A DNA stretch of 64,000 bases from an uncultured Fibrobacterota bacterium (GCA_964455935.1 CAYVZU010000001.1:55142-119141); one strand, 5' to 3'; counted from the stretch's first letter, positions 1,034 through 45,981 are shown. Numbers and translations are program-made. The notes: generated by a model not told the origin, from the letters alone.

Positions 1034-2219
1034 GATCGGCATTTCTTATCTGGAGAATCCGATCAGGGATTATGCATGGGGATCGCCCACGGCCATTCCC
1101 AGATTGCTGGACAGGCCCAACCCGCAACAGAAGCCCCAGGCCGAACTGTGGATGGGCGCCCACCCCGCGGCGCCATCCAGAATTGTTTTGCCGGACAAAG
1201 AAGCACCGTTGACGGAATTGATCGACCGCAGCCCTCAGCCGATCTTGGGAAAACGGATCGCGGACCGGTTTGCCAACAAGCTTCCCTTTCTCTTCAAAGT
1301 GCTTGCGGCTGCCGAACCGCTCTCGATTCAGGCCCACCCCAATTTCGAACAGGCCCGGGAAGGATTCGAGCGCGAGAACCGGGCGGGGATCCCATTGACC
1401 GCCGCAAACCGCAGCTACAAGGATCCCAACCACAAACCGGAAATCATCTGCGCGCTCACGGACTTTTGGGCCATGAAAGGGTTTCGCCCTTTGCGCGAGA
1501 TTGCCGGCTTTTTTTGCGCCATGAAGACGGACCTTCTAAAGGCCGAGGTGGCCGGCCTGGCAAACCCAAAGGGACTGGCCGGGTTTTACTCCAAGCTCAT
1601 GCGCCTTGCGGCTTCCGAGCGGGACCAGATCATTTCCGCCGGACTGGCTCTTGCCCGCGATCACCGGCAGGAAGGTCCGGCCTTGGACTGGGTCTGCCGG
1701 CTCTGCGAACGATATCCCTCGGATGTCGGGGCGCTTTCACTTCTCAACCTTATCCGGCTCAAGCCGGGCGAGGCGCTCTATCTTCCGGCCGGAGTTCTGC
1801 ATGCCTATCTGGAGGGCACGGGCATGGAGCTGATGGCAAACTCCGACAATGTGCTGCGCGGCGGACTCACACCCAAGCACATTGATGTGGATGAACTCCT
1901 CAGCATTCTGCGTTTCGAAACCGACGAAAAAAGCGCTCTGGAAGCGCATTCAATTTCCGAAACCGAGGACGAGTATCCGACGCCGGCATCGGAATTTCGG
2001 CTTTCCGTGATCCGCGTGCAGAATCACAAGCCGCACCTGGAAAAGGACAATAACGGTGTGCAGATCCTTTTTTGCTCCGAAGGCGAGGGCCGGATCTACG
2101 ATCTGGGCTCGCGCGAGGAAAAGGCCATATACCGGGGCGCAAGCCTGCTTATTCCTGCTTGCGTCAGCGCCTACGAAATCCAGGGCCAGACTGTCATCTA
2201 CAAAGCCAGCGTACCCTAA
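1023..2219 (+). CDS. manA: mannose-6-phosphate isomerase, class I
   Basis: Class I PMI signatures YAWGS and ELWMGAHP, plus a cupin C-terminus. ~400 aa. Start overlaps the era stop. Confidence 0.8.
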   Translation: MSGEIGISYLENPIRDYAWGSPTAIPRLLDRPNPQQKPQAELWMGAHPAAPSRIVLPDKEAPLTELIDRSPQPILGKRIADRFANKLPFLFKVLAAAEPLSIQAHPNFEQAREGFERENRAGIPLTAANRSYKDPNHKPEIICALTDFWAMKGFRPLREIAGFFCAMKTDLLKAEVAGLANPKGLAGFYSKLMRLAASERDQIISAGLALARDHRQEGPALDWVCRLCERYPSDVGALSLLNLIRLKPGEALYLPAGVLHAYLEGTGMELMANSDNVLRGGLTPKHIDVDELLSILRFETDEKSALEAHSISETEDEYPTPASEFRLSVIRVQNHKPHLEKDNNGVQILFCSEGEGRIYDLGSREEKAIYRGASLLIPACVSAYEIQGQTVIYKASVP

Positions 2220-2361
2220 AGTGAAGATGCTTGCCTTTTCCGATCTGCATGAGGCAAAAACGGCAGCCGTCCCGACCCTTTTCGGTATTTTATTTAGCCC
2301 AAGTCCGTCGAACTTGGGTTAGCGGTTGAGAAAGCTGCCGGGACAGGTAGAATCCACATCA

Positions 2362-2781
2362 TTACATTTTGATGAACGCGTTTTTAATGTGGTGCAGCCT
2401 GGGCGCGCCGTTCTCGTAAGCGACGGTGACCACGTCGAAGCGCGAGCGCAGGCGTTGGAGGCGATTCTGATAAATGTAGGCCTGGGCCAGCCGGTAAATG
2501 CGCTGCTGCTTGCGGCTGTTGACCCACGATTCGGGCGTGCCGAACGATCCGCAGCGCGCCTTCTTCACCTCAACAAAGACTGTGGTGCCATCCCCATCCA
2601 TGACAATCAAGTCGATCTCGCCGAACCGGCAGCGCCAATTGCGATGAAGAATCCTGTACCCCTGACAAACAAGGTGGTCCGCCGCCATCTGCTCGCCGCC
2701 TGTGCCTACCGCGCGGGTGTTTTTTGCCTGTTGCTGTGCGGGCTTTTGCGGGATTGTCAAATGCACCTCGTCCGGGACCAA
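2362..2781 (-). CDS. yraN: YraN/UPF0102 family endonuclease
   Basis: GEIDLIVMDG...VFVEVKKR core typical of the YraN PD-(D/E)xK family. ~139 aa. Confidence 0.7.
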   Translation of the reverse strand: MVPDEVHLTIPQKPAQQQAKNTRAVGTGGEQMAADHLVCQGYRILHRNWRCRFGEIDLIVMDGDGTTVFVEVKKARCGSFGTPESWVNSRKQQRIYRLAQAYIYQNRLQRLRSRFDVVTVAYENGAPRLHHIKNAFIKM

Positions 2782-2899
2782 TGGCTATCAGCTCAGGGTT
2801 CTTTAGTTCTCGGCTAAAAAGAGCCCGATTGCCCCTCATGCGAGCTTTTAATCTCTGGAACTTTGTCCTGCGTAACCGCGAACTGACAACCGCCAATGA

Positions 2900-4366
2900 T
2901 TATTCCATGCCCCAGATTTCGATCTCGCTGATGGGGGTAATGTTTCGCTCATCGCCGGGGTAGAAATCCAGAATCGTGACGCGCACCAGGCGAGTCTGCT
3001 TGACCGGGAGTACGCAACACTGGGCTCCGATTTCATCACGCAGGTCCCATTGATGCGTCGTGCCGTCCGCGAACCCCACCTCCACCGTGCGGGGCCGGTT
3101 GAAACGGCGGTCCACGCTTGAGGCGGCCTGAAGGCCGGAATATAAAACCATGCGCGTCACGGTCACCGGCTTGCGAAACGTGAAGAGCACATAATTCTTC
3201 TCGTTGCGAAGCCCGTCTGCGGCCGCCCAGGCAGTGCCGGTCTCACGATCGGTTAAATGAGGCAGGCCCCATTCCTTATCCGGCCGGGCGGTGGTGGTCG
3301 CTGACAGGCCGGTGCATTTCAGCGGTTTTTCAATTGCGGAACCCGGAATGAAGATCCATGCCAAAACTCCCGCAAGACAGGCGGCCAATGCCAGCGCGAC
3401 CCAGCCCAGCGGCGAGAACAGGTTGTGGCGGAAACCCCGGCGCTCGACTTTTCTGCGGTCGCCCATGCGTCGATCGGTAATCCGTTTATCCTCCTGGCGG
3501 CGGGCCGTGACGGCAGCCGCCACTTTAATGCCGCTCAGCTTCTGGTCCGCCGCAACCGAGTCCAGATCGGCCAGCATTTCGCTGGCCGACTTGTACCGCT
3601 GTTCCTTGTCCTTTTTCAGCGCCTTCAGCACGATCATGTTAAGCCGGACGGGGATATCCTTGTTCAGATCGATCGGCGCCCTGGGCTGCTCATTGACCTG
3701 CTTATAGGCGATCGCCAATGGGTTGTCCGCCGAAAAAGGCGGCACTCCGGTCAGCATCTCGAAGAGCACGACGCCCAGGCTGTAGAGATCGGTTTGCGCA
3801 TCCAGGGTCAGTCCTTCGGGTTGCTCGGGCGACATATATTCGGGCGTGCCCACGGTCATTCCGGTATTGGTGATCCGCGTATTGGCAAAGATCTTGGCGA
3901 TGCCGAAATCGGACACTGCGATCTTCCCGTTGCGATCGATCAGCACGTTGTGGGGTTTGATGTCGCGGTGAATGATGCGGTGTTCGTGCGCATATTTCAG
4001 TGCGCGCAGAATCTGGCGGGCGATTTGAATGGCTTCGCCGACCTTCAACCGCTTCTCGCGGTCGATTTTGCGGTCCAGGCTTTCGCCTTCCACATACTGC
4101 ATCACAAAAAACCGGTGGCCCTCGTCTTCGCCAAAGTCGTAGATCGTGACGATATTGTGATGCTGGAGCATGGAAATCACGCGCGCCTCGCTGTCGAAAC
4201 GATTCGTGAATTCCTTGTTGCGCGATAGCTCGGGCGGAAGCACCTTAAGGGCCACGATCCGGTTTAGCGAGTCCTGCCGCGCGCGGTATACGTCGCCCAT
4301 ACCGCCGCGGCCGATGCGTTCCAGGATCGCGTATCCGGCCAGACGAGCGCCTTCGGTCAATTGCAT
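2900..4366 (-). CDS. Ser/Thr protein kinase with TM segment and C-terminal discoidin (F5/8 type C)-like extracellular domain
   Basis: Hanks kinase motifs GRGGMGDVY, ALK, HRDIKPHNVLI, DFG, TPEYMSPE. One TM helix. C-terminal TAW...NEK...ISEIEIWG resembles discoidin/F5_F8-C. Start chosen at MQLTEG. Confidence 0.8.
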   Translation of the reverse strand: MQLTEGARLAGYAILERIGRGGMGDVYRARQDSLNRIVALKVLPPELSRNKEFTNRFDSEARVISMLQHHNIVTIYDFGEDEGHRFFVMQYVEGESLDRKIDREKRLKVGEAIQIARQILRALKYAHEHRIIHRDIKPHNVLIDRNGKIAVSDFGIAKIFANTRITNTGMTVGTPEYMSPEQPEGLTLDAQTDLYSLGVVLFEMLTGVPPFSADNPLAIAYKQVNEQPRAPIDLNKDIPVRLNMIVLKALKKDKEQRYKSASEMLADLDSVAADQKLSGIKVAAAVTARRQEDKRITDRRMGDRRKVERRGFRHNLFSPLGWVALALAACLAGVLAWIFIPGSAIEKPLKCTGLSATTTARPDKEWGLPHLTDRETGTAWAAADGLRNEKNYVLFTFRKPVTVTRMVLYSGLQAASSVDRRFNRPRTVEVGFADGTTHQWDLRDEIGAQCCVLPVKQTRLVRVTILDFYPGDERNITPISEIEIWGME

Positions 4367-6444
4367 GAACGACCTTTTCGGTGAAGAGCGAAAAACGCTA
4401 GGAATATACACAACACCGCCAAGGCCGACAATGCCAGCCACTCATCCCCGGGCACAAGTCCCAGCGTGACCTTTTTGGACGCGGTGAAATTCCAACGGCT
4501 TACCGTGAACCGCGAAACAAACCGGCTTACGGCCGGCATCTCGTCAAAAGGGGCGACCGCGCCGGCAAAAAGGATCTGCGGAATCAACGCCAACGGAAGT
4601 GCTGCCAGGGCCCGTTCGGTTCGTTGCGCGATCGCCGAGATCGCCAGACCCATGGCGGTTGCGGCCAAGGCAACAATGGAAAATGAGAGCAAATGAAAAC
4701 GCGCGGCTCCTTCCAGAGGAATCGCGGTGTTGACCAGAAAAACGAGAATCCCGGTCTGGACCAGCGCCAGGACCGCGAGAAAAGTAAATTTGGCCAGAAG
4801 GTAAGGGCCGGGCCGCAGGCCCATGCGCCGCTCGCGCTGGAGCAAGCCGTGCTCTTTGCAGATCTCTTTGACGGAATTAATGCAGCCAAACCAGATGCAG
4901 CTGATTCCCATGCAAAAAAGAAGGGGCCACTGGTTCGTGTTACGGCCAAATACAAGAAAGATCAATCCCCCGATAAGCGGCGCCTGGCCCAGCGTTAATA
5001 GCCAATGGGCGGCATCGCGCCGCAGAAGAATAGCTGTTCGGTGGCACAGCAAGGCAAGCTGGCCAAGACCCGAAGGGCGCCGCGATAGCCGGCATTCCGC
5101 GGCCCGGTCTTTTTCGGCGAAAAGCTCTTCACGGTTCTTGAGCCGCGATTCCACATAGTCGCGGTGCAGCGGCGAAGTCCGGAATCGTTCAGACAGGGTT
5201 GCGGAGGACTCGCCCTCGATTTGGCGATAAATGTCGGCGATTTCTCTGCAACCGAAATAGTCGCCCAGGACAGCGGGAGGGCCAAAAAAAATCAGCCGGC
5301 CCTGGTGCATGAGGCCGACCAGGTCGAATTCCTGCACATGGCTTAGCCGGTGCGTGGAAACAAGGACCGTTCGCCGGCGGTCCGAAATCCGGCGCAGAAG
5401 CTCCATTGTCTTCGCTTCCAATACCGGGTCCAGATTGGCCGTGGGCTCGTCCAGGGCAAGTACCCGGGGGTCGGCGGCCATTTCCATGGCCAGACTCACC
5501 CGCTTGCGTTGGCCGCCGCTAAGAAAACGAACCGGCCGGCCTGCGCACTCGTTGAGTTCAAGGACATCCAGCAGACTCTGCGATTTTCGCGCAATGTCGG
5601 TCTCCACCGGCAGGCGAAGCGCGTTAAGGGCAACCGCGAAGCGGACGGTCTCGCGGGGGGTGAGCAGTTCGGCCAGCATGTCGTCCTGGGGAACAAATCC
5701 CGAAAGCGCGCGATTGGGCCGCACGTCAAGGGGCACGGCATCGTAATAAACGCAACCGGCCGCGGGCGCCTCGAGACCGGCCAAAATCCGCAGGAGACTG
5801 GTTTTCCCTGCGCCACTGGGGCCCAGCAATCCCACAAATTCGCCCGGTTTTACGGCCAGGCTCACGGGGTGCAGAATGGGTCTGGTTCCCGCCCGTTTTT
5901 CGATCCCGGTCACGTCGATCCGCATCCCCGAGAAAGGGAGGCGCTGAAGATCGCCATTCCAGACGGCAAACTGTTCCGGACCAATCGAAAGCCGGTCGCC
6001 GTCGGCCAGTCTGGCTTTTCGTTTCCGTCCCGCCGGACCGGCAAACGATGTGTTGGAATGAGCCGTCTGAAGATACAGCGTAATGCCGCCGCTGTGCGGC
6101 TCCACCCGCTGTTGAAAAAGCGTGGAGGCCTGTGCAGGGCGATCCGCATCCGAGGCCTCCTGAATCAGCAGGATAAGAACGGCGTCGGCCGACGCGACCT
6201 CCAGCTCCTGGGTGCCGACTTGAATGCGGTCTCCGGCTGCAATCCGGTCCGCGGCAGCGGGGCGTCCGTTTAGAAACGTGCCGAACGTGCTGTTCTCATC
6301 CAGAAGAAAAAGGCCTGCGTCGCGGCGTTCGATGCAGGCATGACGGCGTGAGCAAAGGGGGTTGTTCAAAACGAGATCATTCTCGAGGGCCCTGCCAATG
6401 CGCAAGGGCCGCTCCTGGGTGGGAGAAAAAGTGCGGGTGATCAC
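4357..6444 (-). CDS. FHA-FHA-ABC ATPase-ABC-2 permease fusion transporter (Rv1747-like)
   Basis: Two N-terminal FHA-like segments. Walker A GPSGAGKTS, signature LSGGQRKRV, Walker B LALDEPT. C-terminal multi-TM ABC-2 domain. Overlaps the kinase start by ~10 nt. Confidence 0.8.
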   Translation of the reverse strand: MITRTFSPTQERPLRIGRALENDLVLNNPLCSRRHACIERRDAGLFLLDENSTFGTFLNGRPAAADRIAAGDRIQVGTQELEVASADAVLILLIQEASDADRPAQASTLFQQRVEPHSGGITLYLQTAHSNTSFAGPAGRKRKARLADGDRLSIGPEQFAVWNGDLQRLPFSGMRIDVTGIEKRAGTRPILHPVSLAVKPGEFVGLLGPSGAGKTSLLRILAGLEAPAAGCVYYDAVPLDVRPNRALSGFVPQDDMLAELLTPRETVRFAVALNALRLPVETDIARKSQSLLDVLELNECAGRPVRFLSGGQRKRVSLAMEMAADPRVLALDEPTANLDPVLEAKTMELLRRISDRRRTVLVSTHRLSHVQEFDLVGLMHQGRLIFFGPPAVLGDYFGCREIADIYRQIEGESSATLSERFRTSPLHRDYVESRLKNREELFAEKDRAAECRLSRRPSGLGQLALLCHRTAILLRRDAAHWLLTLGQAPLIGGLIFLVFGRNTNQWPLLFCMGISCIWFGCINSVKEICKEHGLLQRERRMGLRPGPYLLAKFTFLAVLALVQTGILVFLVNTAIPLEGAARFHLLSFSIVALAATAMGLAISAIAQRTERALAALPLALIPQILFAGAVAPFDEMPAVSRFVSRFTVSRWNFTASKKVTLGLVPGDEWLALSALAVLCIFLAFFALHRKGRSCN

Positions 6445-7022
6445 GTGTTGGGGGAGTCCGGCTTCATCCGCAGGATGGATAGAATTTGGCGCAGCGCTTC
6501 CTCGAAGTTGTCGTTGATAACCGTGTGCTCATAGCGGCCTTGGGTTTGGGCGAATTCGATTTCTTTTCGCGCGTTGTCCAAGCGAAGGGCGATGGCCTGT
6601 TCCGTCTCGGTGCCGCGTTTTCGAAGCCTGCGTTCCAGCTCTGCCAGCGAGGGCGGAAGGATCAGAATGCCGATATTCTGCGGAAAGACCTTGTCGAATT
6701 TTTTCTTGCCGTACACATCGATGTCGAGGACAATGTCATTGCCCTTCTCGATGGTTTCGCTCACCGGCCGGATTGGTGTACCATAGAAATTGGCATGCAC
6801 CTCCTGCCATTCGGCCAATTCGTTGTTTGCGATGAGAGAGGCAAACTCCTGTTTTGAAACAAAACGATAGTCCCTGCCCTCGCGCTCATTGGGCCGCGGC
6901 TTGCGCGTGGTGGCGGAAATCGAGAAAATGAGTTCGGGAATGGACTCCAACACGCGCTTGAGGAGTGTTGTCTTGCCCGCGCCCGAGGGCGCGCTGATGA
7001 CGAAGATTCGGCCTTTGTTCAT
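6441..7022 (-). CDS. gmk: guanylate kinase
   Basis: P-loop SAPSGAGKTTL and SISATTRKPRPNEREGRDYRFVS, matching the GMP-binding region of guanylate kinases. Confidence 0.9.
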   Translation of the reverse strand: MNKGRIFVISAPSGAGKTTLLKRVLESIPELIFSISATTRKPRPNEREGRDYRFVSKQEFASLIANNELAEWQEVHANFYGTPIRPVSETIEKGNDIVLDIDVYGKKKFDKVFPQNIGILILPPSLAELERRLRKRGTETEQAIALRLDNARKEIEFAQTQGRYEHTVINDNFEEALRQILSILRMKPDSPNT

Positions 7023-7050
7023 AAGGATAAAAATAACTGCTCAGGTCCCC

Positions 7051-7182
7051 ATGAAACCACAGAGAGAAATCCGAGTTGAGAATGAGAACACAGAGGGAAA
7101 TCTTTCCGGCGCAGCGCGCCGGAAAAGCTTTTTCTCCCCTCTGTGTTCTCTTCTCCGACCTCTGTGTTACTCTGTGGTTTCA
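7051..7182. repeat. ~130-nt compound imperfect palindrome with reiterated ACACAGAG/CTCTGTGT motifs and a central CCGGCGC-AGC-GCGCCGG core
   Basis: GAAACCACAGAG...GAGAACACAGAGGG...TTTCCGGCGCAGCGCGCCGGAAA...CCCTCTGTGTTCTC...CTCTGTGTTACTCTGTGGTTTC. Outer 12-bp arms and inner 14-bp arms pair. Lies immediately 5' of the gmk start on the minus strand. Confidence 0.5.
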
Positions 7183-7233
7183 AGATTCTTTTCAGGAGAC
7201 GTGAGTAGTTATGAATCAAATTGGGTTTACATT

Positions 7234-7605
7234 TCACAATTTTCCCCGGTGCGCCTGAAGCATGCCCTTGAGTACCTGCGCGATCAACTTGTAGGCGGCA
7301 TCGGAATTCCCGGCCCGGGCCGGCGCTTTGGGTTTTCGCATCGCGGTCAGTTTCTGCAGGGCGCCCGCGGTTCGAAGCAGTCGGGTCCGGGAATCGGAAG
7401 GCACCTTTTTGGGAAGGACGCTAATCGGGCCGGAGTTGGGGTTGGTCCGGTAACGGCATTGCATTTGGCAGTTTTGGTGCTCCCAGCACTTGCGCGTTGC
7501 CGCGATGCGGCCCGACCGCCTTCCTTCATAGTACATGCAGCGCAAACATACCCGGGACACATTGCCCGTGCTGTCCTGGCGGGATTCCCAGCACTCCATA
7601 AGCAC
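7234..7605 (-). CDS. hypothetical small Cys-rich protein
   Basis: ORF with six Cys (C..C...C.....C...C) and a GTG start. No recognisable family and no SD. May be non-coding. Confidence 0.2.
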   Translation of the reverse strand: MLMECWESRQDSTGNVSRVCLRCMYYEGRRSGRIAATRKCWEHQNCQMQCRYRTNPNSGPISVLPKKVPSDSRTRLLRTAGALQKLTAMRKPKAPARAGNSDAAYKLIAQVLKGMLQAHRGKL

Positions 7606-7761
7606 AAAATAAATGGTGCGACGACGGTGAGGCTTGAAGACCGATCATTTTCCGACAGAAGCGGATGCCGACTCGTGGAAAGGCCGAAGGCGTTTTGAAA
7701 GTTGGTCCCAACCCGCGAACGGGGCAACGGCAGCCCTATTCGCGGGCTCCTTCTTGAAGGA

Positions 7762-8373
7762 TCACAAACTGATCAGGTAACCGACATTTACTTTCAGGTT
7801 GCTGTTTCTCTGGTTAATATCATTGGAGCTGGAGACCTTCGTCAGACCGAATGTATAGCCTGCTCCGATTACGATTTTCTTTGCGGCTATGTAAGTCGTC
7901 CCAATGGCCAATCCAAGTTCAAAGGGGCTATAATCACTCCTTAAGTCCAGCATTTCCGCCGTCATTGCGCCGGTCACTGGATTCGTGTTTTCCGTTTTGG
8001 ATTCTGCGGCCAACAGGAGCCCTATTTCCAAACCCGCATTCAGGGCCGCCGCAGGAATCGGGGAAAACGAAAATTGTACAGGTACGGCCAGGTAGCCCAG
8101 GCTTTCAAAGCATTTCTTTGTGTAGATAGGATCGGGTTCCTGGATGATGGCGCCTTTGGTTACAAAATTTACTCCTGCCAACAAACCCATTTTGTCTTTA
8201 AATGGATATGAATAGCTGGCGCCCACATTGAAGCCAAGTTTTGGGCTGGTGTATTCGGCATCATCGCCAAGGTATGTCGACATATTCACTCCGCCTCCAA
8301 CCACCACGTCGCGGGCGGCAAATACCATTGCCGAAAGTGACAGGACGGCAAAGCACACCTTCAGACATTTCAT
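7762..8373 (-). CDS. outer-membrane beta-barrel protein (OmpA-like small barrel)
   Basis: Signal peptide MKCLKVCFAVLSLSAMVFA. Alternating amphipathic beta-strands ending in an aromatic C-terminal residue. Lies in a lower-GC patch. Confidence 0.6.
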   Translation of the reverse strand: MKCLKVCFAVLSLSAMVFAARDVVVGGGVNMSTYLGDDAEYTSPKLGFNVGASYSYPFKDKMGLLAGVNFVTKGAIIQEPDPIYTKKCFESLGYLAVPVQFSFSPIPAAALNAGLEIGLLLAAESKTENTNPVTGAMTAEMLDLRSDYSPFELGLAIGTTYIAAKKIVIGAGYTFGLTKVSSSNDINQRNSNLKVNVGYLISL

Positions 8374-8512
8374 GCAGGGCCTCCTTTAAGAATCTGTACC
8401 GCCATTTAAATGCCAACGTATCTTTGATCCTGCTTTGCTTTCCAGCGCCCTCCTCGGCAACGGGTTGGTTCCAGTGCTTGTCCAAATATCAATGGGCTTT
8501 TCGGCGCCGGCC

Positions 8513-30312: not shown

Positions 30313-33300
30313 ATGGTAGCCAGGGGAATTCGGCCGTGGCTGGCCGGCGCGGCCATTTCGGCATGGGCCGTTTGCGCCGCCGCCTACGATGTGGCGTCGT
30401 CATGCTGGAATCCCATATGCAGCGGATCAAGCTGCCTGCTGGATGGAATTACGGTCAACGACATCGAGGTTCTTACCGATAGGATTCTTTTCGTGGCAGG
30501 CGGCGATCAGTTGTCCACGACCGATGGAGGAATTTACCACACCGGCGACGGCGGAGTGTCCTGGAACCGGGTCATCCTGGGAAGCGAAGAGGCCCGCGTC
30601 AACTGCATCCGGCGAATTAATGGGAGTTGGTATGCGGGCGTGGATGCGGCGCCGGCCAAGAATTTTTCCGGGCTCTGGAAAAGCAACGACGGATTGACCT
30701 GGACCGAGTATATGCAAGGCGCGTTTTTGAACACGGAAGTGTACGATGTTGCCGCCGGTCCAGACGGTATTTATGTCGGTTTGGGATTGGCGGGCAACGC
30801 GCTTTTCCGGATTGCAGGCGATTCCGCCAAGGCCGTAGTGGGCCTGCCTTCTCAGCCGGTCTATGCGCTGTGCCGGGTGAGCGGGACCCTGTATGCGGGA
30901 ATCGGCAACGCCGTCTGGTCGATTGGGGCCGCTCCCGCCAAGGTGAGCCAGGATATGGCGGGCAACGTCCGCATGATCGCCGCCGACCCGGCGGCCACCG
31001 GCGCCTTCTATTTCGGAGTCATCGGGCCCGACCGGGCTGCAAGCCTGGCGGGGTTGTTCCGTTACAGCCCTTCGCAGGCGGGCCAGGGATCGATCCGCCG
31101 GATCGGGGCAAACGGTATCACCTCGCAGCAGGTCTGGGGGATTGGGTTCAACGGGCAGGACAAGTCGGAAGTGTACGTGGCCACCTTCCCGGACGCAATT
31201 ACCGGGTCCGACGGCGGCTTCTTCTATTCGAGGGACAGCGGCGCTACATGGGCCTCGAACAACTACGGATTGCGCAATTACTGCGCGGTTCGGGACATCG
31301 GAGTCGCCGACTCGACCATCTATATCGGCCTTGGATTTCAGGGCGGGCTGTATCGCCTTGTTCCCGGCCGCGCGAGCCCCTTTGTGACCAAAAGCTGGGA
31401 AACGCTGATCCGGGGCACGGCCGGGACCGACAAACTCCTCCAAAACCTCGCCCTGCGCGATTTGGGCGGAAGCACCACGCTGAAGATCCGCAAGAACATG
31501 GAAACGGGCGAGGTGAATCCGGTTTCGATCAAGGGCAAGGTGCAGGGCGGCATGGATTACCGGCTCTCGGTTTCCGCCGGAACCTCGCTCAAGCGCAGCT
31601 TGCCGCTGGAGGCGGCGGCCGAAGCCAATGCATCTGCCAGTGCGACATTTTACGCCGTGCCGTTCCTCAACGGGGAACTGAAAGTGGACATGGCGCAGCT
31701 CGCGGCCAAAGCCGAAGCGCCCCTGCAAATGACGGGTCTGGCAATGCTCGAAATGATCGCCAGCTATTCCAACAATTCATTTCTGATTTACGCGTCCAGC
31801 AAGCTGGAAACCTGGATTGCGGGGCCCAATTCCAATGTCTGGCAATCGCTGGGCTCGGTCATGCTGGGCCAGGGTTGCGAGGCGGGCATTGAGGCCGGCG
31901 CATCAGCCGCGGCCCAGGTCAGGATGCCGGATTTCAAGGATATCTCCGACGCGCTGGGCACCGTGGGGCTCGGCCGCATTGATGTGGCCAGCGCCAAGGC
32001 CTCCGGCGACGTCAGCTTTCGGTATTGGATCGAACGGTGCCGCCAGATTGTGCCGGCCTCCACCGCCGGGTGCACGACAAACTACCATTTCGAGCAGTCG
32101 TTCCAGTTCAGCGGGGTCCAGACCGCCCTCAACATTCCTCTGCGTCTCCCCATGAACCTGTCCTTCGACCGGCTTAACAAAACGCTCACAGCGCGAAATT
32201 ACCACCGGATGGCGGATGTAAAATGCGTGGGCACCGGAACCGGAGCGCAACAGGTCATCTCCGCCTCCCTTGAATTCGACGAGGCCCCCTATTGGACCTA
32301 CAATTATCAGGCCGCCACAGGGGACTCCAGAGGAAAAACCGAGTCCGGAATTTCCCGCACCCAATACGAAATCATGGGCCCCTCATCGAAGGATTTGATG
32401 GCAGCCCTCACGGCCGATTCCCGGATTTTTGCGATGATGGTCCCTCTGGGCCCATTTTTCGACAATTCGCCGGAGCGTGCCGTGGTTACCGGAAATTTCG
32501 GCAGCGAGAAGTCGGCGGTCGAGGCTTTTGCGCGGTCCATGGACAGCCTGCTTACGGCCTTCCCGACCTGCACGCTGCGCACGCGCGTCTGGGTGGAGAA
32601 CCGGGGCGAGGAAAGCAAGAATTTTTCCACGGACGACCTGGGAATTCCCATGCTCCGGGTCGCAGGCAAGGTGGGCTTGCGCACGGTGGTTTCACACGAC
32701 AAATATGTGATCAAACGCTACTACGACACGGGCCTGGGAAAAATGGCCGAGTACGGGCAGGCCTTTTCGGATCCTGGGACCAACAGCCTCGATTTTGTCA
32801 GCATGGTTCGTTCCACACTGGGCGAAACATGGGCGGGCTTCATGCAGAAACTGCAGGATTTGGGAGGAACCATCACCGGAATTCTGCGCGCGACCGGTAC
32901 CCCCAAAGTAGCCCGGGCTGCCGCGGCTCTGGATACTTCGTTCGTCCTGGTGACGGGGCCGGACACCAATGGAACGCTCCGGTTCTCGCTCAGCAGCGCG
33001 CCCGACTCGCTACATTTTGCCTACTTCTACGACAGCACCTTCATTCGGAGCCAATCTGTCGGTTTCGGCGGCATCTTCGAAATCCTTGCGGCCGCTGATT
33101 CGCTGCCGGCTACAGGAACGATCCGGATGCGTTACTCCCGCCCCGACGCGGCCGGCCTGGACGAAACGAAGATCGCGTTTTACCGGGAACTCCGGATTGC
33201 GGGGACGGACCAGTGGCGCTTCTGGGGCGGCCGGTGCGACACGTCCGCAAATCGGTGTTCCCTGACCGTTTCTTCGCTTTACAGTTTTACCCTGGGCTAT

Positions 33301-33927
33301 GACTCCGCCCCGCCGATCCTTCAGGGCTACAGGGAAGGAACCGCGCCCGCCGGGGACACGGTGAATCGCCGGATCGACCTTTGCCTTTATGACGCAATGA
33401 GCGGAATCGAACCATCCTCCATTTCGGTAACCCTCGACGGCGCGCCGCTGAGCGCGACATTTCGCGCCTTGCGCGATTCGGTTCTTCCCCTCGACAGCAG
33501 TGCAACATACGGGCACGACTCTGTATTCGTGACCTGCTCGCGCCAGACCGCGGAAGGGAAAAAGATCGTGCTTACGGTCTTGGACCGCAGCGGCAACCGC
33601 CTTGTAGACTCGATTTCCTTGCCCAGCACAGGCTCACTCACGTTGAGCGACATTGCCTGCTATCCGAATCCTTCCAAGGCGGATGTTTTCTTCTCCTTCC
33701 GGGCATCGGCGACCTGCAAGGTCAGGCTGTATATCCTCACATTGAGCGGGGAACGGGTGCGGGATTTTGATCTCAATGCAGCCTGGGGTGCCAACGAAAT
33801 CCATTGGGATGGGCGAAACGGCGCGGGTCGAAAGGTAAGCCCGGGCGTCTACTACTACAGGTTGAAAGCGTCCAGCGAGCAGGGCGGCTCCTTCGAGGCC
33901 CTGAAAAGATTGGCGATTACGCGATGA
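30313..33927 (+). CDS. 1204-aa secreted BNR/Asp-box-repeat surface protein with T9SS-type (Por_Secre_tail / FlgD-Ig-like) C-terminal sorting domain
   Basis: Signal peptide. Asp-box repeats STTDGGIYHTGDGGVSW, SNDGLTW and SRDSGATW. C-terminus YPNPSKADVFFSF...VRLYILTLSGERV...WDGRNGAGRKVSPGVYYYRLKA fits the T9SS CTD consensus. Confidence 0.7.
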   Translation: MVARGIRPWLAGAAISAWAVCAAAYDVASSCWNPICSGSSCLLDGITVNDIEVLTDRILFVAGGDQLSTTDGGIYHTGDGGVSWNRVILGSEEARVNCIRRINGSWYAGVDAAPAKNFSGLWKSNDGLTWTEYMQGAFLNTEVYDVAAGPDGIYVGLGLAGNALFRIAGDSAKAVVGLPSQPVYALCRVSGTLYAGIGNAVWSIGAAPAKVSQDMAGNVRMIAADPAATGAFYFGVIGPDRAASLAGLFRYSPSQAGQGSIRRIGANGITSQQVWGIGFNGQDKSEVYVATFPDAITGSDGGFFYSRDSGATWASNNYGLRNYCAVRDIGVADSTIYIGLGFQGGLYRLVPGRASPFVTKSWETLIRGTAGTDKLLQNLALRDLGGSTTLKIRKNMETGEVNPVSIKGKVQGGMDYRLSVSAGTSLKRSLPLEAAAEANASASATFYAVPFLNGELKVDMAQLAAKAEAPLQMTGLAMLEMIASYSNNSFLIYASSKLETWIAGPNSNVWQSLGSVMLGQGCEAGIEAGASAAAQVRMPDFKDISDALGTVGLGRIDVASAKASGDVSFRYWIERCRQIVPASTAGCTTNYHFEQSFQFSGVQTALNIPLRLPMNLSFDRLNKTLTARNYHRMADVKCVGTGTGAQQVISASLEFDEAPYWTYNYQAATGDSRGKTESGISRTQYEIMGPSSKDLMAALTADSRIFAMMVPLGPFFDNSPERAVVTGNFGSEKSAVEAFARSMDSLLTAFPTCTLRTRVWVENRGEESKNFSTDDLGIPMLRVAGKVGLRTVVSHDKYVIKRYYDTGLGKMAEYGQAFSDPGTNSLDFVSMVRSTLGETWAGFMQKLQDLGGTITGILRATGTPKVARAAAALDTSFVLVTGPDTNGTLRFSLSSAPDSLHFAYFYDSTFIRSQSVGFGGIFEILAAADSLPATGTIRMRYSRPDAAGLDETKIAFYRELRIAGTDQWRFWGGRCDTSANRCSLTVSSLYSFTLGYDSAPPILQGYREGTAPAGDTVNRRIDLCLYDAMSGIEPSSISVTLDGAPLSATFRALRDSVLPLDSSATYGHDSVFVTCSRQTAEGKKIVLTVLDRSGNRLVDSISLPSTGSLTLSDIACYPNPSKADVFFSFRASATCKVRLYILTLSGERVRDFDLNAAWGANEIHWDGRNGAGRKVSPGVYYYRLKASSEQGGSFEALKRLAITR

Positions 33928-41849: not shown

Positions 41850-44800
41850 TTACGCGGGATTGGCAGTCTTCCGGCCTTTCCGTCCCAGGTAGGCCGTTAC
41901 CATCGCGGGAATCACAAACAGGGTCATCAACGTCGAGACCGCGACACCACCGATGGCCGTGATCGCAAACGGCGCCTGGATGCTCGCGGACTGAAGGGCC
42001 GCGGGGATCGACGAAGTTACAATCGCCAGGTTCATCATCAGGATCGCGTGGAACTTCGTTTTGCATGCATCCATCATGGCGTCATGAGAGCTAAGGCCGT
42101 CCTTCATCCGCATCATTGAATAATCAATCACCAGAATAGCGTTGTTGACCACCACGCCAATGAGCATGATCATTGACATGAGTGAAATCATGGAAATCGA
42201 CTTGCCTGTGATAAGCAAAGCCGAAATAACGCCGATGAATCCCAGGGGAATGGTAATCATAATGAACAGGGGGAGAACTAGTGATTCGAGCGTGCCCGCC
42301 AGAACCATGAAGGTGAGCAGAATCGCCAGCAGCGTCGCCTTGCCCAACGCGCCGAAGGACTCGGCCATCATCTCCTGCTGGCCTCCAAAATAGATCCGGT
42401 AGCCCGATGGCACCTGGATCCGCTTCGTCAGTTTCTGCAGCTCGGCCGCCTTGGTTCCCGAAGCGCCCTTGGTTACGTTGGCGGTCACCGTGACCAGGCG
42501 CTGCCGGTTCTTGCGGTCGATGTTGGCCGCGCCGCCGCGATAAACCACCTTGGCCAGGGCTTTGACCGGAACAATCCCCCGCATGGTCGGGATGGAAATA
42601 TTTTCGATCGCGTCCAAAGAATTCCGGTCGCTTTCGCCGTATTGGACGCGCATCGTAATCTCGTCGTTGGTTTCGCGGTAGACCGCGGCTTCACTTCCTG
42701 TGAGCGCGTTGCGCACAAAGAAGCCGAGCATGGCCACGTTCATTCCGTATTCGTCCATGCGCATGCGGTCGGGCACGAACTGAATTTCCGGTTTGGCCTC
42801 TTTCCATGAGCGCTGGATGTCGGCCACGCCGGGAATTGTGCGGGCCAGCGCCATGACCGAATCCGTGAGCCGCAGGATTTTATCCATATCGTCACCGGTC
42901 ACCTCAACCTGAATATCGGCCTGGTTTCCCCCGCCGCCCATGGTGGACATCTCCTTTGCCGTAAATCGCGCGTCGGGAATATCGGCCAGCATGGGACGAA
43001 TGTCCCCAATCACTTCCTTCGTCGATCGCTTGCGCTGCTTGGCATCCTTCAGGCGCAATGTCACGGCGCCGAAATTGACGCCGCTCGAGGTTCCGCTGCC
43101 GCCCAGGCTTGAATAAACATCCACCAGTTCGGGGATTTTTGAAACCCGCGTCTCAACGGTCTGAAGCACACGATCGGTCGCCGACAGGGATGTGCCGGAG
43201 GGCATTTCCACTGAGATATCAACAAGGCCGGCATCGGTGGACGGGAAGAATTCGGATCCCACAAACCGGGCCGCGAAGAAACTGGTAAACAGAAGCAGGA
43301 CCGTCGAAACGATAACCCGCACTTTGTGAGCGAGCGCCGTTTGAAGCAAGTAAACATAGCGGCGTTCGAGCCAGGACAGAAACACTTCGAACCAGGCGAA
43401 CTTGAATTGCAGGCCCGTTCGGCCCAGCAACTTGGAGGCCATCAGAGGAGCCAGCGTGAAGGAAAGGGCCAGCGAAATAATTGTTGCGGCGGTTATTGTG
43501 AGTCCCAATGCTTTGAAGATCTGGCCGGTGATTCCCTGCATGGTGGCGATGGGCACGAACACAGCCACATTGGTGAGGGCCGAAGCGATCACCGCCACGG
43601 CGATCTCCGTTGTCCCTTTAAGCGATGCCTCGTTGATCGCATTCCCCATCCGCCTGTGGCGGACGATGTTCTCAAGGACAAGGATCGCATTGGTAACCAG
43701 TGTCCCCACGGAGATGGCCAGCGACATGAGCGTGATCACGTTGATCGTGAAACCGAGCATCTGCATGAACATGAAGGTTACGATCAGCGAGGCCGGAATC
43801 GTGATGGCGGCAATCAGCGTGAGTCGAACGTCGTGCAGAAAAAGAAGTAGCAAAATGGAGGTGAGCAGAATTCCAATCGCGACATTCGAATACATGTCAT
43901 TGACCGAGGTTCGAATGAAATCCGATCGGTCGCGCACAATGCTTAGCTTTGACCCGACCGGAAGCTTGGCCTCAATCTCCCGCAGGGCTTTGGCGCAACG
44001 GTCCGCCACTTCGACCGTGTTGGCATCGGGCCGCTTCTGGATCGAGATTCCCACTGAGTTGCGGCCGTTGAAGCGGGCGCCCTGTCGAACCTCTTTGTAA
44101 GCATCCTCCACCGCACCCAGAGCCGAAAGCGGAACGCTCATGGACGGCCCTCCGGGCCGGGAGACCGGGATGCGGAGATCGGAAATCTGGTGGAGCGATT
44201 CGAACTGGCCCTTGATTCGCACTGTGTATTCTTTCCGGTCGCCGGTCACCTGGCCCCCGGGAATGTCAACGGTCTGCGCGCCGATCATGGAGGCGACCGC
44301 GGTCACCGAGAGTCCAAGCGCATCCAGCTTCTCTTTGCGCAGGTTAATTCGAATCTCTCGCTCGCGACCGCCCGTAATGGCAACGGCCGCGACGCCGGGA
44401 ATGCGCACCAGATCCTCTTTGATCTGCTTGTCCGCAATATGGCGAAGCTCCAGCGGAGGCATGCTGGCGGTCATGGCCACATCCAGAATCGGCTGGGAAT
44501 TCATGTCGAACTTGGATACCACCGGCTTTTGAAGGTCGCGGGGCAGCTTAAAGAGAATGGCGTCGATTTTATCCTTCACATCGATGGAGGCAATGTCGGG
44601 ATTGACGCCCAGGTTGAATTCGACGAAAAGAAAGCCAAGCCCTTCGGCGCAAAAGGCGGTGATGTTTTTGATTCCACTGACCGTGGTTAATTGCTCCTCG
44701 ATGGGCTTGACCACGGCGGTCTCAATTTCCTCGGGACCGGCACCAGGGTAGATGGCCTGCACCGAAACAAAGGGAAGCTCGATATTGGGCATCAGGTCGA

Positions 44801-44900
44801 TGGGCAGACCAAGAAACGCGACAAGGCCAAAGGTGACAAAGGCCAGAATCACCATGATGGCCAGGACGGGCTGATGAATACTGATTTGCGTAATTTTCAT
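41850..44900 (-). CDS. RND multidrug efflux permease (AcrB/HAE1 family)
   Basis: 1016 aa and 12 TM helices. AcrB N-terminus MKITQISIHQPVLAIMVILAFVTFGLVAF...NIELPFVSVQAIYPGAGPEEIE. Confidence 0.9.
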   Translation of the reverse strand: MKITQISIHQPVLAIMVILAFVTFGLVAFLGLPIDLMPNIELPFVSVQAIYPGAGPEEIETAVVKPIEEQLTTVSGIKNITAFCAEGLGFLFVEFNLGVNPDIASIDVKDKIDAILFKLPRDLQKPVVSKFDMNSQPILDVAMTASMPPLELRHIADKQIKEDLVRIPGVAAVAITGGREREIRINLRKEKLDALGLSVTAVASMIGAQTVDIPGGQVTGDRKEYTVRIKGQFESLHQISDLRIPVSRPGGPSMSVPLSALGAVEDAYKEVRQGARFNGRNSVGISIQKRPDANTVEVADRCAKALREIEAKLPVGSKLSIVRDRSDFIRTSVNDMYSNVAIGILLTSILLLLFLHDVRLTLIAAITIPASLIVTFMFMQMLGFTINVITLMSLAISVGTLVTNAILVLENIVRHRRMGNAINEASLKGTTEIAVAVIASALTNVAVFVPIATMQGITGQIFKALGLTITAATIISLALSFTLAPLMASKLLGRTGLQFKFAWFEVFLSWLERRYVYLLQTALAHKVRVIVSTVLLLFTSFFAARFVGSEFFPSTDAGLVDISVEMPSGTSLSATDRVLQTVETRVSKIPELVDVYSSLGGSGTSSGVNFGAVTLRLKDAKQRKRSTKEVIGDIRPMLADIPDARFTAKEMSTMGGGGNQADIQVEVTGDDMDKILRLTDSVMALARTIPGVADIQRSWKEAKPEIQFVPDRMRMDEYGMNVAMLGFFVRNALTGSEAAVYRETNDEITMRVQYGESDRNSLDAIENISIPTMRGIVPVKALAKVVYRGGAANIDRKNRQRLVTVTANVTKGASGTKAAELQKLTKRIQVPSGYRIYFGGQQEMMAESFGALGKATLLAILLTFMVLAGTLESLVLPLFIMITIPLGFIGVISALLITGKSISMISLMSMIMLIGVVVNNAILVIDYSMMRMKDGLSSHDAMMDACKTKFHAILMMNLAIVTSSIPAALQSASIQAPFAITAIGGVAVSTLMTLFVIPAMVTAYLGRKGRKTANPA

Positions 44901-44922
44901 GATGTGCTCGAAGCGCCCCGGC

Positions 44923-45981
44923 TTATTGGGCCGTCACGGTTTCGGTGACCAGCTTCACTTTGACGCCGTCGACCAGGTTGCCCATTCCGGCCTTCACAAA
45001 GAGCTGTCCTTCGTCGATTCCCTGCAGGATCTCATACATGCTTCCGCCGCGAATCCCGGTCTGCACCGCGATTTTGCGCGCCTGATCATTTTCGACCAGA
45101 AAGAGGAAATTCCGATCGCCTTCCTGCACCAGCGATTCCATGGGAACGGTGATTGCGTTTTTCCTCTCCTCCACCACAATCGAGGCGGTCACAAACATGC
45201 CTGGCCGCAAACGGCGTCCCGGATTGGCAAACAGCGCCTCGATGGAGAACGAATGGCTCGCGGCCCCGCCCGAAAGTGAAACCAACGTGACGCGGCCCTC
45301 GATTGTGTCGGACCCAAGCGCAATGCGGGCGGGCTGGCCCACGGCGAAGCGGTGAATCACGGCTTCGCTCACCTGCGCTTTGAGGCGTACGCGGTCGAGC
45401 GTTGCCAGATCCACCAGCGGCCGCCCGCGGTCAACCGTGCTGCCCAGGGATTGATAGATCTGGGTCACGGTACCGCTATAGGGCGCTGTAAGAATTTCCG
45501 TTTTGGCCGCATATTTGTAGCTGGCGCGGGCGGCCACCAGCCCGCTCTCGACCTGGTCTACGATCTCCTGGGACACCCCGCCTTCCTGGGCCAGAGCGTC
45601 AAGACGTTCCTTGGATTTTTCGGCGTTCTTGTATTGAGCCTCGGACATTTCCAACGGCGAAGGCATATCGGGATCCATCCGCAGCAGGCGTCCGCCTTTT
45701 GCGACGCCCTCCCCAACCCGGGCATATATCTCCTGCACCTGGCCCGGCACATTGCAGACCAGTGTCGTCTGGCGCTCGCCCTCCAACGTTCCGCCCACCA
45801 GTTCAATATCACGAAGAGTCCCGCGCTGCACATTGAGTGTGGTCACGGGAATGCCCTCGCGCTTCTGAATCTCCTCGATCGTCTCCGCTTTCATCTTGGC
45901 CTTCTTCTGACACGAGGCTGAGGCCACGGCCAGTGCCGCCATTGCGATCAAAATCAGAAGCGCCCGAACGTTGGATTTCAT
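44923..45981 (-). CDS. RND efflux periplasmic adaptor (membrane fusion protein, lipoprotein)
   Basis: Lipobox LAVASASC, then biotinyl/lipoyl, beta-barrel and MP domains typical of AcrA/HlyD. Confidence 0.85.
   Translation of the reverse strand: MKSNVRALLILIAMAALAVASASCQKKAKMKAETIEEIQKREGIPVTTLNVQRGTLRDIELVGGTLEGERQTTLVCNVPGQVQEIYARVGEGVAKGGRLLRMDPDMPSPLEMSEAQYKNAEKSKERLDALAQEGGVSQEIVDQVESGLVAARASYKYAAKTEILTAPYSGTVTQIYQSLGSTVDRGRPLVDLATLDRVRLKAQVSEAVIHRFAVGQPARIALGSDTIEGRVTLVSLSGGAASHSFSIEALFANPGRRLRPGMFVTASIVVEERKNAITVPMESLVQEGDRNFLFLVENDQARKIAVQTGIRGGSMYEILQGIDEGQLFVKAGMGNLVDGVKVKLVTETVTAQ

Follow-up and report, generated by a model that had tools for sequence, protein, structure and literature searches.

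Genes at the locus

In the 64,000-nucleotide stretch of DNA that was analysed (the window), four genes follow one another on the minus strand: gmk, a gene encoding a fusion of FHA, ABC ATPase and ABC-2 permease domains, the gene of a Hanks-type Ser/Thr kinase and, beginning 118 nt downstream of the latter, a gene of the UPF0102/YraN family (Table 1). Reading of the junctions revealed that gmk (stop TGA) and the transporter gene (start GTG) share 4 nt (GTGA, 6441-6444), and that the transporter and kinase genes overlap by exactly 10 nt, in agreement with the sequence-only reading, which had described the two genes as adjacent with an overlap of about this length. This overlap implies that the transporter and the kinase are translationally coupled, and we infer that they are also co-transcribed. 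The open reading frame of the kinase spans 2900..4441; the ATG at 4366 was taken as the start, since it is backed by the alignment of orthologues and by a public annotation of 488 aa (an NCBI-sourced protein). The Guanylate_kin Pfam domain was found on the genes orthologous to the window gmk, which is 43-74% identical to the syntenic gmk of relatives. The GC content across the region is unremarkable, and no further FHA or kinase genes were found in the window.

Table 1. Position of the genes and features of the locus, in window coordinates
Feature	Coordinates	Strand	Evidence or remark
gmk (guanylate kinase)	6441..7022	-	ORF call; first gene in conserved block
FHA-(FHA relic)-ABC ATPase-ABC-2 permease, 695 aa	4357..6444	-	Pfam FHA, ABC_tran, ABC2_membrane
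FHA-1, residues 1-95, intact	6160..6444	-	Pfam E 1.8e-15; PDB; nine strands, pLDDT ~80-90
Inter-domain linker EASDADRPAQASTL, residues 96-109 (~14)	6118..6159	-	Alignment; predicted disordered
Decayed FHA-2 remnant, residues ~110-170	5935..6117	-	Alignment with syntenic relatives
Nucleotide-binding domain	5215..5919	-	Pfam; invariant columns; all motifs intact
ABC-2 type transmembrane domain, six long helices	4366..5082	-	Pfam ABC2_membrane; AlphaFold helices with pLDDT above 90
10-nt overlap ATGCAATTGA, transporter stop/kinase start	4357..4366	-	Sequence read
Hanks-type Ser/Thr kinase, 488 aa	2900..4366	-	Kinase domain, Arg-rich juxtamembrane segment, one TM helix, C-terminal discoidin-type ectodomain
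Kinase catalytic domain, residues 12-264	3575..4333	-	Pkinase E 9e-60
Juxtamembrane motif KRITDRRMGDRR, residues 294-305	3452..3487	-	Alignments; conserved
Single TM helix, residues ~316-342	3341..3421	-	Hydropathy maximum 320-342; weak FixQ TM match 322-343
NADase-type discoidin / F5/8 type C-like ectodomain, residues 356-488	2903..3301	-	Profiles and predicted fold
UPF0102/YraN-family gene	2362..2781	-	Pfam UPF0102 E 4e-28; syntenic fourth gene

The transporter retains one intact FHA domain

The Pfam matches of the transporter cover residues 15-77 (FHA), 191-336 (ABC_tran) and 462-655 (ABC2_membrane), and TIGR00955 was matched with 177 bits, under its cut-off. The nucleotide-binding domain (NBD) carries the Walker A motif GPSGAGKT (208-215), Q253, LSGGQ (308-312), LALDEP with the Walker B and catalytic residues (329-334), and H365. 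In Foldseek, the AlphaFold model (pLDDT 88.6) found ABCG2, ABCG25, ABCG5/G8 and ABCG1 as top matches, with TM scores of 0.75-0.80 on the target. According to this model, the protein is an ABCG-like half-transporter.

The sequence-only reading had assigned two FHA domains to this protein, of which the first stands and the second proved to be a shortened relic. The best solved-structure match of FHA-1 in a PDB search was FHA-1 of Rv1747 (6CAH, E 2.4e-8). We regard it as a putative phosphothreonine-binding domain: the binding residues G17, R18, S32 and H35, each kept in 90% or more of 64 homologues, are present, and the Asn of the 'TNG' motif, conserved in the peptide-binding loop, is replaced by Phe54. 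The linker that follows has a pLDDT below 50 at residues 97-109. The sequence-only reading had singled out this segment for its possible threonines; S98, S107 and T108 are the only candidate acceptors, and T108 is the sole Thr in ~14 residues, so that a long Thr-rich linker is not present.

Over residues ~110-170, neither Pfam nor the PDB search returned an FHA match. The alignment with syntenic relatives revealed a deletion of ~17 residues here and the loss of GR and SxxH, whereas across the wider family the G, R, S and H of the second FHA are each conserved to 90% or more. With hhalign the remnant reached only E 0.0018 (49 columns) against the FHA-2 of relatives, whereas the latter matched FHA-1 with 98.9% probability; AlphaFold predicts seven strands in it (pLDDT 55-71). 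The same in-frame decay was observed in two independent metagenomic relatives (loci L002 and L003), and it is therefore not an assembly error. The second FHA is retained in the syntenic relatives L004-L007 and L089-L092. The decay of FHA-2 took place in the subclade to which the window belongs.

The kinase carries a discoidin-type ectodomain

All catalytic motifs and the one hydrophobic helix that had been claimed for the kinase were found. It has the Gly-rich loop (GRGGMG, 19-24), the VAIK lysine (VALK, K41), HRD (HRDIKPHN, 133-140), DFG (153-155) and the APE/SPE motif (SPE, 179-181), that is, the complete set of a Hanks-type kinase, and T163 and T166 of the activation loop are invariant in the alignment columns of its orthologues. 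The best NCBIfam match of the kinase domain was Stk1/PknB (NF033483), with 377 bits under a cut-off of 450 and restricted to model positions 9-286; with this score and no PASTA repeats in the protein, its identification as a PASTA kinase was rejected. The juxtamembrane motif, KRITDRRMGDRR in the window, recurs in the Fibrobacterota kinases that lack an ectodomain, and its form KRITDRRxGDRR is common to orthologues with and without an ectodomain in the alignment. Because an Arg-rich segment precedes the TM helix, the topology is predicted to be N-in, C-out.

The discoidin-like nature proposed for the C-terminal domain was borne out by two curated profiles, PF25302 (NADase_transloc F5/8 type C, 31.0 bits, cut-off 27) and NCBIfam NF047619 (NADase_discoid, 68.4 bits, cut-off 38), which cover residues 356-483, while the classical PF00754 (F5_F8_type_C) gave no match to the kinase protein at E <= 0.1. 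The domain to which both profiles refer takes its name from the translocation domain of the NAD glycohydrolase of Streptococcus pyogenes. A D-x4-T-x-W motif (373-380) is conserved, and 13 residues are invariant across 11 family members. The AlphaFold model, of moderate confidence (pLDDT 74, pTM 0.73; its residues 15-30 below 50), agrees with the profiles in predicting a galactose-binding-domain-like beta jelly roll. Foldseek related this model to the folds of APC10/Doc1, 3NNG (F5/8 type C), CBM32 and neuropilin b1, the first three with E values of 1e-5 to 1e-4 and TM scores of 0.55-0.68. From the family name and these structural neighbours only, we infer that the ectodomain binds glycans. What sets it apart from other NADase-type discoidin domains is its fusion to a kinase: among the 150 best representative homologues, a kinase domain is present in eight, three of them from the window's clade, and the remaining homologues are mostly small secreted or membrane proteins, or multi-repeat proteins.

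The gene block is conserved in Fibrobacterota-type lineages

The order gmk, FHA-FHA-ABC, STK (the kinase) is kept in nine independent loci, with kinase identities of 40-73%, and the YraN gene occupies the same place in L002, L004, L005, L007 and L089-L091. The same four genes, in identical order and orientation, are found in Chitinispirillum alkaliphilum (GCA_001045525.1, L089) and in MAGs of Fibrobacter sp. (L090) and Chitinivibrionales (L091). The transporter and kinase genes of relatives overlap or lie at most ~40 nt apart. Judging from this synteny, lineages of the Fibrobacterota type inherited the module from their common ancestor and keep its gene order, gmk, ABC, STK, YraN, throughout. 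The block has been annotated, and literature searches found no study of it.

The kinases of this Fibrobacterota block have 50-60% catalytic-domain identity to the window kinase and a single TM helix as well, and they differ from it in ending a few residues past this helix (~360 aa); their transporters have two profile-detectable FHA domains, against one in the window. An ectodomain is present in the kinases of L002 and L004-L007, and absent from those of L089-L091 and of most Fibrobacterota relatives. Because the orthologous kinases of syntenic relatives stop just past the TM helix, the discoidin ectodomain is best read as an addition, a gain in the window's sparsely sampled lineage. That this lineage is not actinobacterial, as had been supposed, agrees with the position of the kinase domain, nearest to kinases of Chitinivibrionales, Chitinispirillaceae and Fibrobacter, and with a DnaA ~52% identical to those of KSB1, Calditrichota and Zhuqueibacterota. 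Its description as T9SS-bearing is weakly suggested by the sole match in the window, Por_Secre_tail, whose score of 20.1 bits is under the cut-off of 23.

Among syntenic relatives, the transporter is 29-38% identical and the kinase 52-60%. The faster divergence of the transporter could mean a looser functional coupling.

Comparison with known kinases and distribution of the pair

PknF (Rv1746), a Hanks kinase, and Rv1747, an FHA-FHA-ABC exporter, are encoded by a two-gene operon of Mycobacterium tuberculosis. PknF phosphorylates Rv1747 and modulates it positively, for which FHA-1 is required, and the linker of Rv1747 consists of ~100 disordered residues with the phospho-acceptor threonines T152 and T210 (PMC3138270, PMC8339232). 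The comparison supports the classification of the window pair as a Hanks kinase with an FHA-ABC exporter of the PknF/Rv1747 type. Both pairs consist of a single-pass kinase adjoining an ABC half-transporter in which an N-terminal FHA and the NBD precede a six-helix ABC-2 type TMD, and they presumably share the logic of an FHA-read phosphothreonine that modulates the exporter. The equation with PknF/Rv1747 made by the sequence-only reading thus holds for the type of pair, but not for its details. In M. tuberculosis pknF precedes Rv1747 (PMC3138270), whereas in the window the transporter comes first; the window transporter has one intact FHA, a decayed FHA-2 and a ~14-residue linker; the kinase bears a discoidin-type ectodomain, for which the kinases beside the sampled actinobacterial FHA-ABC loci gave no match; and the pair is set inside the gmk...YraN block. 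With FHA-2 decayed, the regulation of Rv1747 by a pair of FHA domains and a long, multiply phosphorylated linker cannot, by its domain composition, operate in the same way in the window protein. Likewise, the short linker makes the multivalent linker-FHA clustering and phase separation described for Rv1747 unlikely here.

With the PASTA kinases (PknB, PrkC, Stk1) the window kinase shares the Hanks domain, one TM helix and an extracytoplasmic sensor, which in those proteins binds glycans or muropeptides. It differs in its sensor, a jelly roll of the discoidin/CBM32-like kind, and in belonging to a diderm bacterium of FCB type.

The sequence-only reading had described the arrangement as known from mycobacteria; in the wider survey it is not exceptional outside Actinobacteria. 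Fusions of FHA, ABC and ABC2 domains were found in Planctomycetota, Chloroflexota, Acidobacteriota, Ignavibacteriota, cyanobacteria, Bacillota and archaea, and a Hanks kinase lies within 5 kb at seven of the 27 sampled FHA-ABC loci of other phyla. An analogous ABC-kinase adjacency, with a PP2C phosphatase nearby, was observed in Ignavibacteriaceae, and the pairing also occurs in Bacillota, Vulcanimicrobiota and Actinobacteria. The window transporter is ~29% identical to Rv1747 and 28-32% to those of the actinobacterial loci. In the comparison with Rv1747 homologues that the sequence-only reading had proposed, a crude, distance-based NJ tree of the NBD+TMD region without support values, the actinobacterial transporters form their own clade and the window sequence falls outside it, grouped with one sequence from Ignavibacteriaceae and the syntenic relatives, which argues against orthology with Rv1747; nothing in this tree suggests a transfer from Actinobacteria.

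Proposed mechanism and alternative explanations

We hold it to be moderately probable that the two genes, co-translated and conserved together, encode a module for signalling and transport, in which a glycan-type signal would pass from a single-pass Hanks kinase through FHA-1, a domain of the phosphothreonine-binding type, to an ABCG-like homodimeric exporter. The kinase has an intact catalytic core, and its predicted topology places the CBM32-like domain in the periplasm. Binding of a glycan-type ligand, for example a sugar derived from the envelope or from a polysaccharide, may then cause dimerisation of the kinase and autophosphorylation of T163/T166. FHA-1 of the transporter would read a phosphothreonine either in the activation loop or juxtamembrane segment of the kinase or in the transporter's short linker (T108), and this docking may alter the ATPase or transport activity of the exporter, or its assembly. 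By analogy of fold, the exporter probably carries a lipid or some other hydrophobic envelope component; adjacency and overlap of the genes indicate co-expression, not a substrate relationship.

It seems rather unlikely, though it deserves to be weighed, that the genes are co-expressed housekeeping neighbours and no dedicated pair, with the kinase as a pleiotropic regulator like PknB or PrkC, FHA-1 reading phosphothreonines from other kinases or proteins, and the gmk/YraN synteny reflecting a conserved operon. In relatives the block does lie amid gmk, YraN, tyrS, tsaE and topA, and the Stk1/PknB model, albeit under its cut-off, is the top match of the kinase domain; moreover, 20 of the 27 FHA-ABC loci of other phyla have no kinase within 5 kb, and transporter and kinase evolve at very unequal rates. 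However, direct ABC-STK adjacency is preserved across several orders, in loci whose kinase identity ranges from 73% to only 40%, the two genes overlap or nearly so in the window and in relatives, and the same pairing arose or persisted in the four other groups named above. In addition, kinase and transporter are cognate in the sole case that has been characterised (PMC3138270).

A reversed signal flow is improbable. The transporter would here sense flux or substrate load, as Bce-type systems do, its FHA would recruit and control a kinase that acts on other targets, and the discoidin domain would merely localise the kinase to envelope glycan. FHA domains can serve as kinase-docking scaffolds. 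FHA-kinase binding has been reported (PMC8339232), and the kinases of most Fibrobacterota relatives, having no ectodomain, must depend on a signal from the cytoplasm or from within the membrane, of which the transporter is a possible source. Nevertheless, no precedent is known for a Hanks kinase that takes its signal from an FHA-ABC exporter, and the direction of signalling is not readable from sequences.

A role of the pair in defence against phages, with a kinase of the PD-T4-6 or MADS type, is very improbable, as the matches that suggest it (PADLOC PD-T4-6 models on residues 11-290, E down to 5e-106; mad6, E 2e-80; NCBIfam MAD6, 192 bits against a cut-off of 460) span the generic kinase domain only, and the kinase is membrane-anchored, has an ectodomain and is a syntenic orthologue in a phylum-wide housekeeping block instead of a variable island. 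Horizontal transfer of a mycobacterial or actinobacterial pknF-Rv1747 operon is hardly credible either: FHA-1 of Rv1747 is the nearest solved structure to FHA-1, but identity to actinobacterial transporters is not above that to other phyla, and the tree, the opposite gene order, the affinity of the kinase domain and the regional GC content all speak against it.

We thus favour the kinase-exporter module. Since pairs of a kinase and an FHA-ABC protein are widespread outside Actinobacteria, the pair in the window represents an uncharacterised variant of them and not a surprise.

Gene Organization and Conservation of the Module

The module comprises four minus-strand genes arranged head-to-tail, whose coordinates are collected in the table below together with those of other features of the window. 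The stop codon of gmk overlaps the GTG start codon of the transporter gene by 4 nt (GTGA), and ATGCAATTGA contains both the stop codon of the transporter gene and the ATG of the kinase gene, in agreement with the 10-nt overlap that the sequence-only reading had described. A mechanical call of the kinase ORF allows an upstream start at 4441; the orthologue alignments and the 488-aa product under the NCBI source support the ATG at 4366 as the predicted start. The overlaps imply that the genes would be tightly coupled in translation. A promoter and terminator scan of positions 2000–8500 gave counts that lay within the shuffle expectation, FCB-type promoters being outside its coverage, and no further kinase or FHA genes were found in the 64-kb window.

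Positions of the module genes and of other features in the window
Feature	Position	Strand	Basis or remark
gmk	7022–6441	-	ORF; first of four head-to-tail genes
FHA-ABC transporter gene (695 aa)	6444–4357	-	ORF
FHA-1 residue F54	6283–6285	-	
Ser/Thr kinase gene (488 aa)	4366–2900	-	ORF and orthologue-supported start
Juxtamembrane motif KRITDRRxGDRR(x3)RR	3452–3487	-	
UPF0102/YraN gene	2781–2362	-	fourth in head-to-tail row
Small ORF ahead of dnaA	9987–10307	+	presumably a STAS-type anti-sigma-antagonist-like gene
dnaA	10506–11864	+	
Gene of 1204-aa protein	30313–33927	+	
RND efflux set	41850–47785	-	
Type I Wadjet system	56252–62847	+	PADLOC
JetA/DUF3375	56252–57694	+	PADLOC
JetB	57636–58307	+	PADLOC
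JetC (1121 aa)	58307–61672	+	PADLOC
JetD	61669–62847	+	PADLOC

Each of the loci that the kinase searches recovered has the order gmk, FHA-FHA-ABC, kinase, usually with YraN next. Kinases bearing the ectodomain are encoded in the relatives' loci L002, L004, L005, L006 and L007 (kinase identities of 40–73%), and kinases devoid of it in Chitinispirillum alkaliphilum (L089), a 'Fibrobacter sp.' MAG (L090) and a Chitinivibrionales MAG (L091). The latter kinases are 50–60% identical and likewise have the juxtamembrane motif and the TM helix, but their sequences end a few residues past this helix. Since they are clear orthologues, the discoidin domain has been added, in this lineage specifically, to a conserved kinase that otherwise has no sensor. 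These loci show that the adjacency of the ABC transporter and the kinase has been conserved over the long term; that the two proteins are co-expressed and not cognate is, in our judgement, unlikely. The gmk gene always lies directly upstream of the FHA-ABC gene (window, L002, L004–L007 and L089–L091), and YraN is described as nuclease-like.

The FHA, ABC_tran and ABC2_membrane architecture was found in all of the best 120 transporter matches, among which the named taxa are Planctomycetota, Chloroflexota, Acidobacteriota, Ignavibacteriota and one archaeon. A genome scan added, among the matches listed, Bacilli, Vulcanimicrobiota, cyanobacteria, Armatimonadota and many Actinobacteria. A Hanks kinase lies within 5 kb (≤5 kb) in 7 of the 27 FHA-ABC loci among the matches listed, non-actinobacterial ones included; these 27 loci, with the FHA region aligned, are a cross-phylum sample from a genome-contig scan with a generic LDEPT pattern. 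The kinase/FHA-ABC pairing is widespread in public genomes, and for groups other than the Actinobacteria our literature searches turned up no study of it. A locus from an Ignavibacteriaceae MAG (L092, GCA_013388545.1, 2036–3437 and 6001–9564) encodes on one strand a Zn-ribbon-FHA protein, a PP2C phosphatase, a Zn-ribbon-FHA-FHA-ABC transporter and a 421-aa Hanks kinase. The kinase is directly downstream of the transporter and the phosphatase and second FHA protein are upstream, forming a fuller phospho-signalling cluster.

A Kinase With a Discoidin-Type Ectodomain

The Pfam Pkinase domain covers residues 12–264 of the kinase (E = 9e-60), the Hanks motifs are complete (GRGGMG, K41, HRDIKPHN, DFG and SPE), and T163 and T166 of the activation loop are both invariant in the orthologue alignment. 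The protein has one hydrophobic helix (approximately residues 316–342), and the Arg-rich segment KRITDRRMGDRRKVERRG just N-terminal to it predicts an N-in, C-out topology. Residues 356–488 matched PF25302 ('NAD glycohydrolase translocation F5/8 type C domain') with 31.0 bits (curated cut-off 27) and NCBIfam NF047619 ('NADase-type glycan-binding domain') with 68.4 bits (curated cut-off 38). An AlphaFold model of this region, obtained from an alignment of 11 family members (pLDDT 74, pTM 0.73), matched APC10/Doc1, a Bacteroides F5/8 type C domain, CBM32 modules and neuropilin b1 in Foldseek (E values of 1e-5 to 1e-4, TM 0.55–0.68). With two profiles above their cut-offs and a predicted fold that agrees, the discoidin-like ectodomain that had been proposed for the kinase is confirmed. 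These results show an active-looking, single-pass kinase whose discoidin-type domain is predicted to be extracytoplasmic, and we infer that this domain binds a ligand. A reversed flow of the signal, in which the transporter would be the sensor, seems to us improbable.

The ectodomain family has 411 representative homologues (E ≤ 1e-3). A kinase domain is present in 8 of the best 150 of these 411; three belong to the window's clade, and the other five fusions among the best 150 are apparently of independent origin. No description of a discoidin-kinase fusion was found in our literature searches, surveys of bacterial kinase architecture mention neither discoidin nor the FHA-ABC pairing, and the literature searched yielded nothing that treats the translocation domain of the S. 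pyogenes NADase as a CBM. With this fusion, the repertoire of bacterial Hanks kinases is extended by a rare candidate glycan sensor.

The juxtamembrane motif is near-invariant in orthologous kinases with or without the ectodomain (L002, L004–L007 and L089–L091), a conservation that exceeds what the positive-inside rule needs. It might be a docking site, or it might bind a lipid or a nucleotide. T297, in the juxtamembrane segment, was rejected as a universal FHA docking site, since it is Val in three family members and hence no conserved acceptor.

An ABCG-Like Transporter With One Intact FHA Domain

The transporter contains FHA (15–77), ABC_tran (191–336) and ABC2_membrane (462–655) domains according to Pfam, and all its ATPase motifs are intact. 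The solved structures nearest to its full-length AlphaFold model (pLDDT 88.6) are ABCG2, ABCG25, ABCG5/G8 and ABCG1 (TM 0.75–0.80 on the target), indicating an ABCG-like half-transporter. Among solved structures, the N-terminal FHA domain is closest to Rv1747 FHA-1 (6CAH, E = 2.4e-8). The exporter is active-looking and ABCG-like, with a single intact FHA domain. Of the two FHA domains originally proposed, the N-terminal one therefore stands, and the second is not detectable, having decayed. L004–L007 have a second FHA with G-R and S-x-x-H, as do at least 90% of 64 homologues. The window, like its two closest relatives (60–62% identity, from independent metagenomes), has lost approximately 17 residues of this region, GR among them, and has substitutions in SxxH and in the TNG loop. 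Using hhalign, the remnant aligned with the relatives' FHA-2 with an E value of only 0.0018 over 49 columns, and the relatives' FHA-2 matched FHA-1 with 98.9% probability. AlphaFold models the remnant as seven beta strands (pLDDT 55–71), preceded by a 14-residue linker (96–109) in which residues 97–109 are predicted to be disordered and T108 is the single Thr.

In FHA-1, an aromatic residue or His stands clade-wide where the canonical S-T-N-G-T peptide-binding loop has Asn (F54 in the window; loops STFGT, SKHGT and SKYGT), and the GR and SxxH motifs are retained; this replacement may alter phosphopeptide specificity. Among L004–L007 and L089–L091 the transporter is 29–38% identical, versus 52–60% for the kinase catalytic domain and 43–60% for gmk, so that it diverges much faster than its neighbours.

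Lineage and Genomic Context

On the kinase domain and the synteny, the affinity of the window is with Fibrobacterota-type bacteria. DnaA has a few relatives at 66–73% identity, followed by proteins of KSB1, Calditrichota, Zhuqueibacterota and Bacteroidota at approximately 52%. Together, these data indicate a deep, sparsely sampled, FCB-like lineage that is clearly not actinobacterial, as had been anticipated; one source sample was a groundwater metagenome. In a crude NJ tree of the NBD and TMD region, the actinobacterial transporters, Mycobacterium among them, formed a clade separate from the group of the window. Acquisition of the pair by transfer from Actinobacteria is highly improbable in view of the identity levels and this tree. 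The lineage had also been described as T9SS-bearing; the single sign of this within the window was a sub-threshold Por_Secre_tail match (20.1 bits, cut-off 23). This match, the sole T9SS hint checked in the window, is on a 1204-aa protein with no recognisable domains except a C-terminal FlgD_ig/T9SS-sorting-like segment.

The dnaA gene is approximately 4 kb from the module, so the window is probably near the replication origin; its cumulative GC skew has no clear turning point. The RND efflux set consists of an AcrB-family pump (1016 aa, E = 1e-235), an OEP/TolC-like outer-membrane protein (556 aa) and, between their genes, a 352-aa ORF that is possibly the periplasmic adaptor. A complete type I Wadjet (JetABCD) anti-plasmid system gave very strong PADLOC matches for 4/4 genes. 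That the kinase of the module is itself a defence kinase is very hard to sustain, as its PADLOC and NCBIfam matches are generic kinase-domain matches below the curated cut-offs.

Comparison With PknF/Rv1747 and Proposed Mechanism

To our knowledge, Rv1747/PknF is the only kinase-controlled FHA-ABC exporter that has been studied, and debate continues over its substrate and its regulatory logic. In this system the transporter is phosphorylated by the kinase, with a positive effect on its function, and FHA-1 is needed (PMC3138270, PMC8339232). By analogy, ligand binding would activate the kinase of the module, FHA-1 would read a phosphothreonine of either the kinase or the short linker, and its docking would change exporter activity. 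The arrangement had been considered of the PknF/Rv1747 type; this holds in that both would work alike, but the module has neither a functional FHA-2, nor a long phospho-acceptor linker, nor orthology with that system, and its gene order and kinase sensor domain differ. Because FHA-2 has decayed and a long Thr-bearing linker is absent, compaction or clustering through the linker, as in Rv1747, is unlikely here, and the module may be a simpler, one-FHA version of the Rv1747 mechanism. Esr signalling of Actinobacteria (2026 preprint) has a similar kinase-to-FHA logic, but it is an unrelated system.

Taken jointly, the results are compatible with a phylum-wide, near-essential envelope-homeostasis circuit built on an FHA-gated ABCG-like exporter and rewired in the window's lineage, a reading that we hold tentatively, as possible. 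If true, a single FHA domain would be the means by which a Hanks kinase gates an exporter of lipids or glycolipids in Fibrobacterota-type bacteria, a formerly sensor-less, tail-anchored kinase would have gained a periplasmic glycan-sensing discoidin domain, and the window's own subclade would have lost the second FHA, leaving a minimal one-FHA, linker-less Rv1747 mechanism that dispenses with multivalent clustering.

The module would not surprise a specialist. Its practical impact is limited, as the organism is uncultured and every component is from a known family. The module is sound and well conserved, and is useful for comparison in the Rv1747 problem. Fibrobacterota-type lineages have conserved the same pairing, which is seen again in other phyla. 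Its natural variants differ in having or lacking a sensor ectodomain and in having one FHA domain or two, and some have almost no linker; as a set for comparison, they allow one to ask which parts of the Rv1747 model are indispensable.
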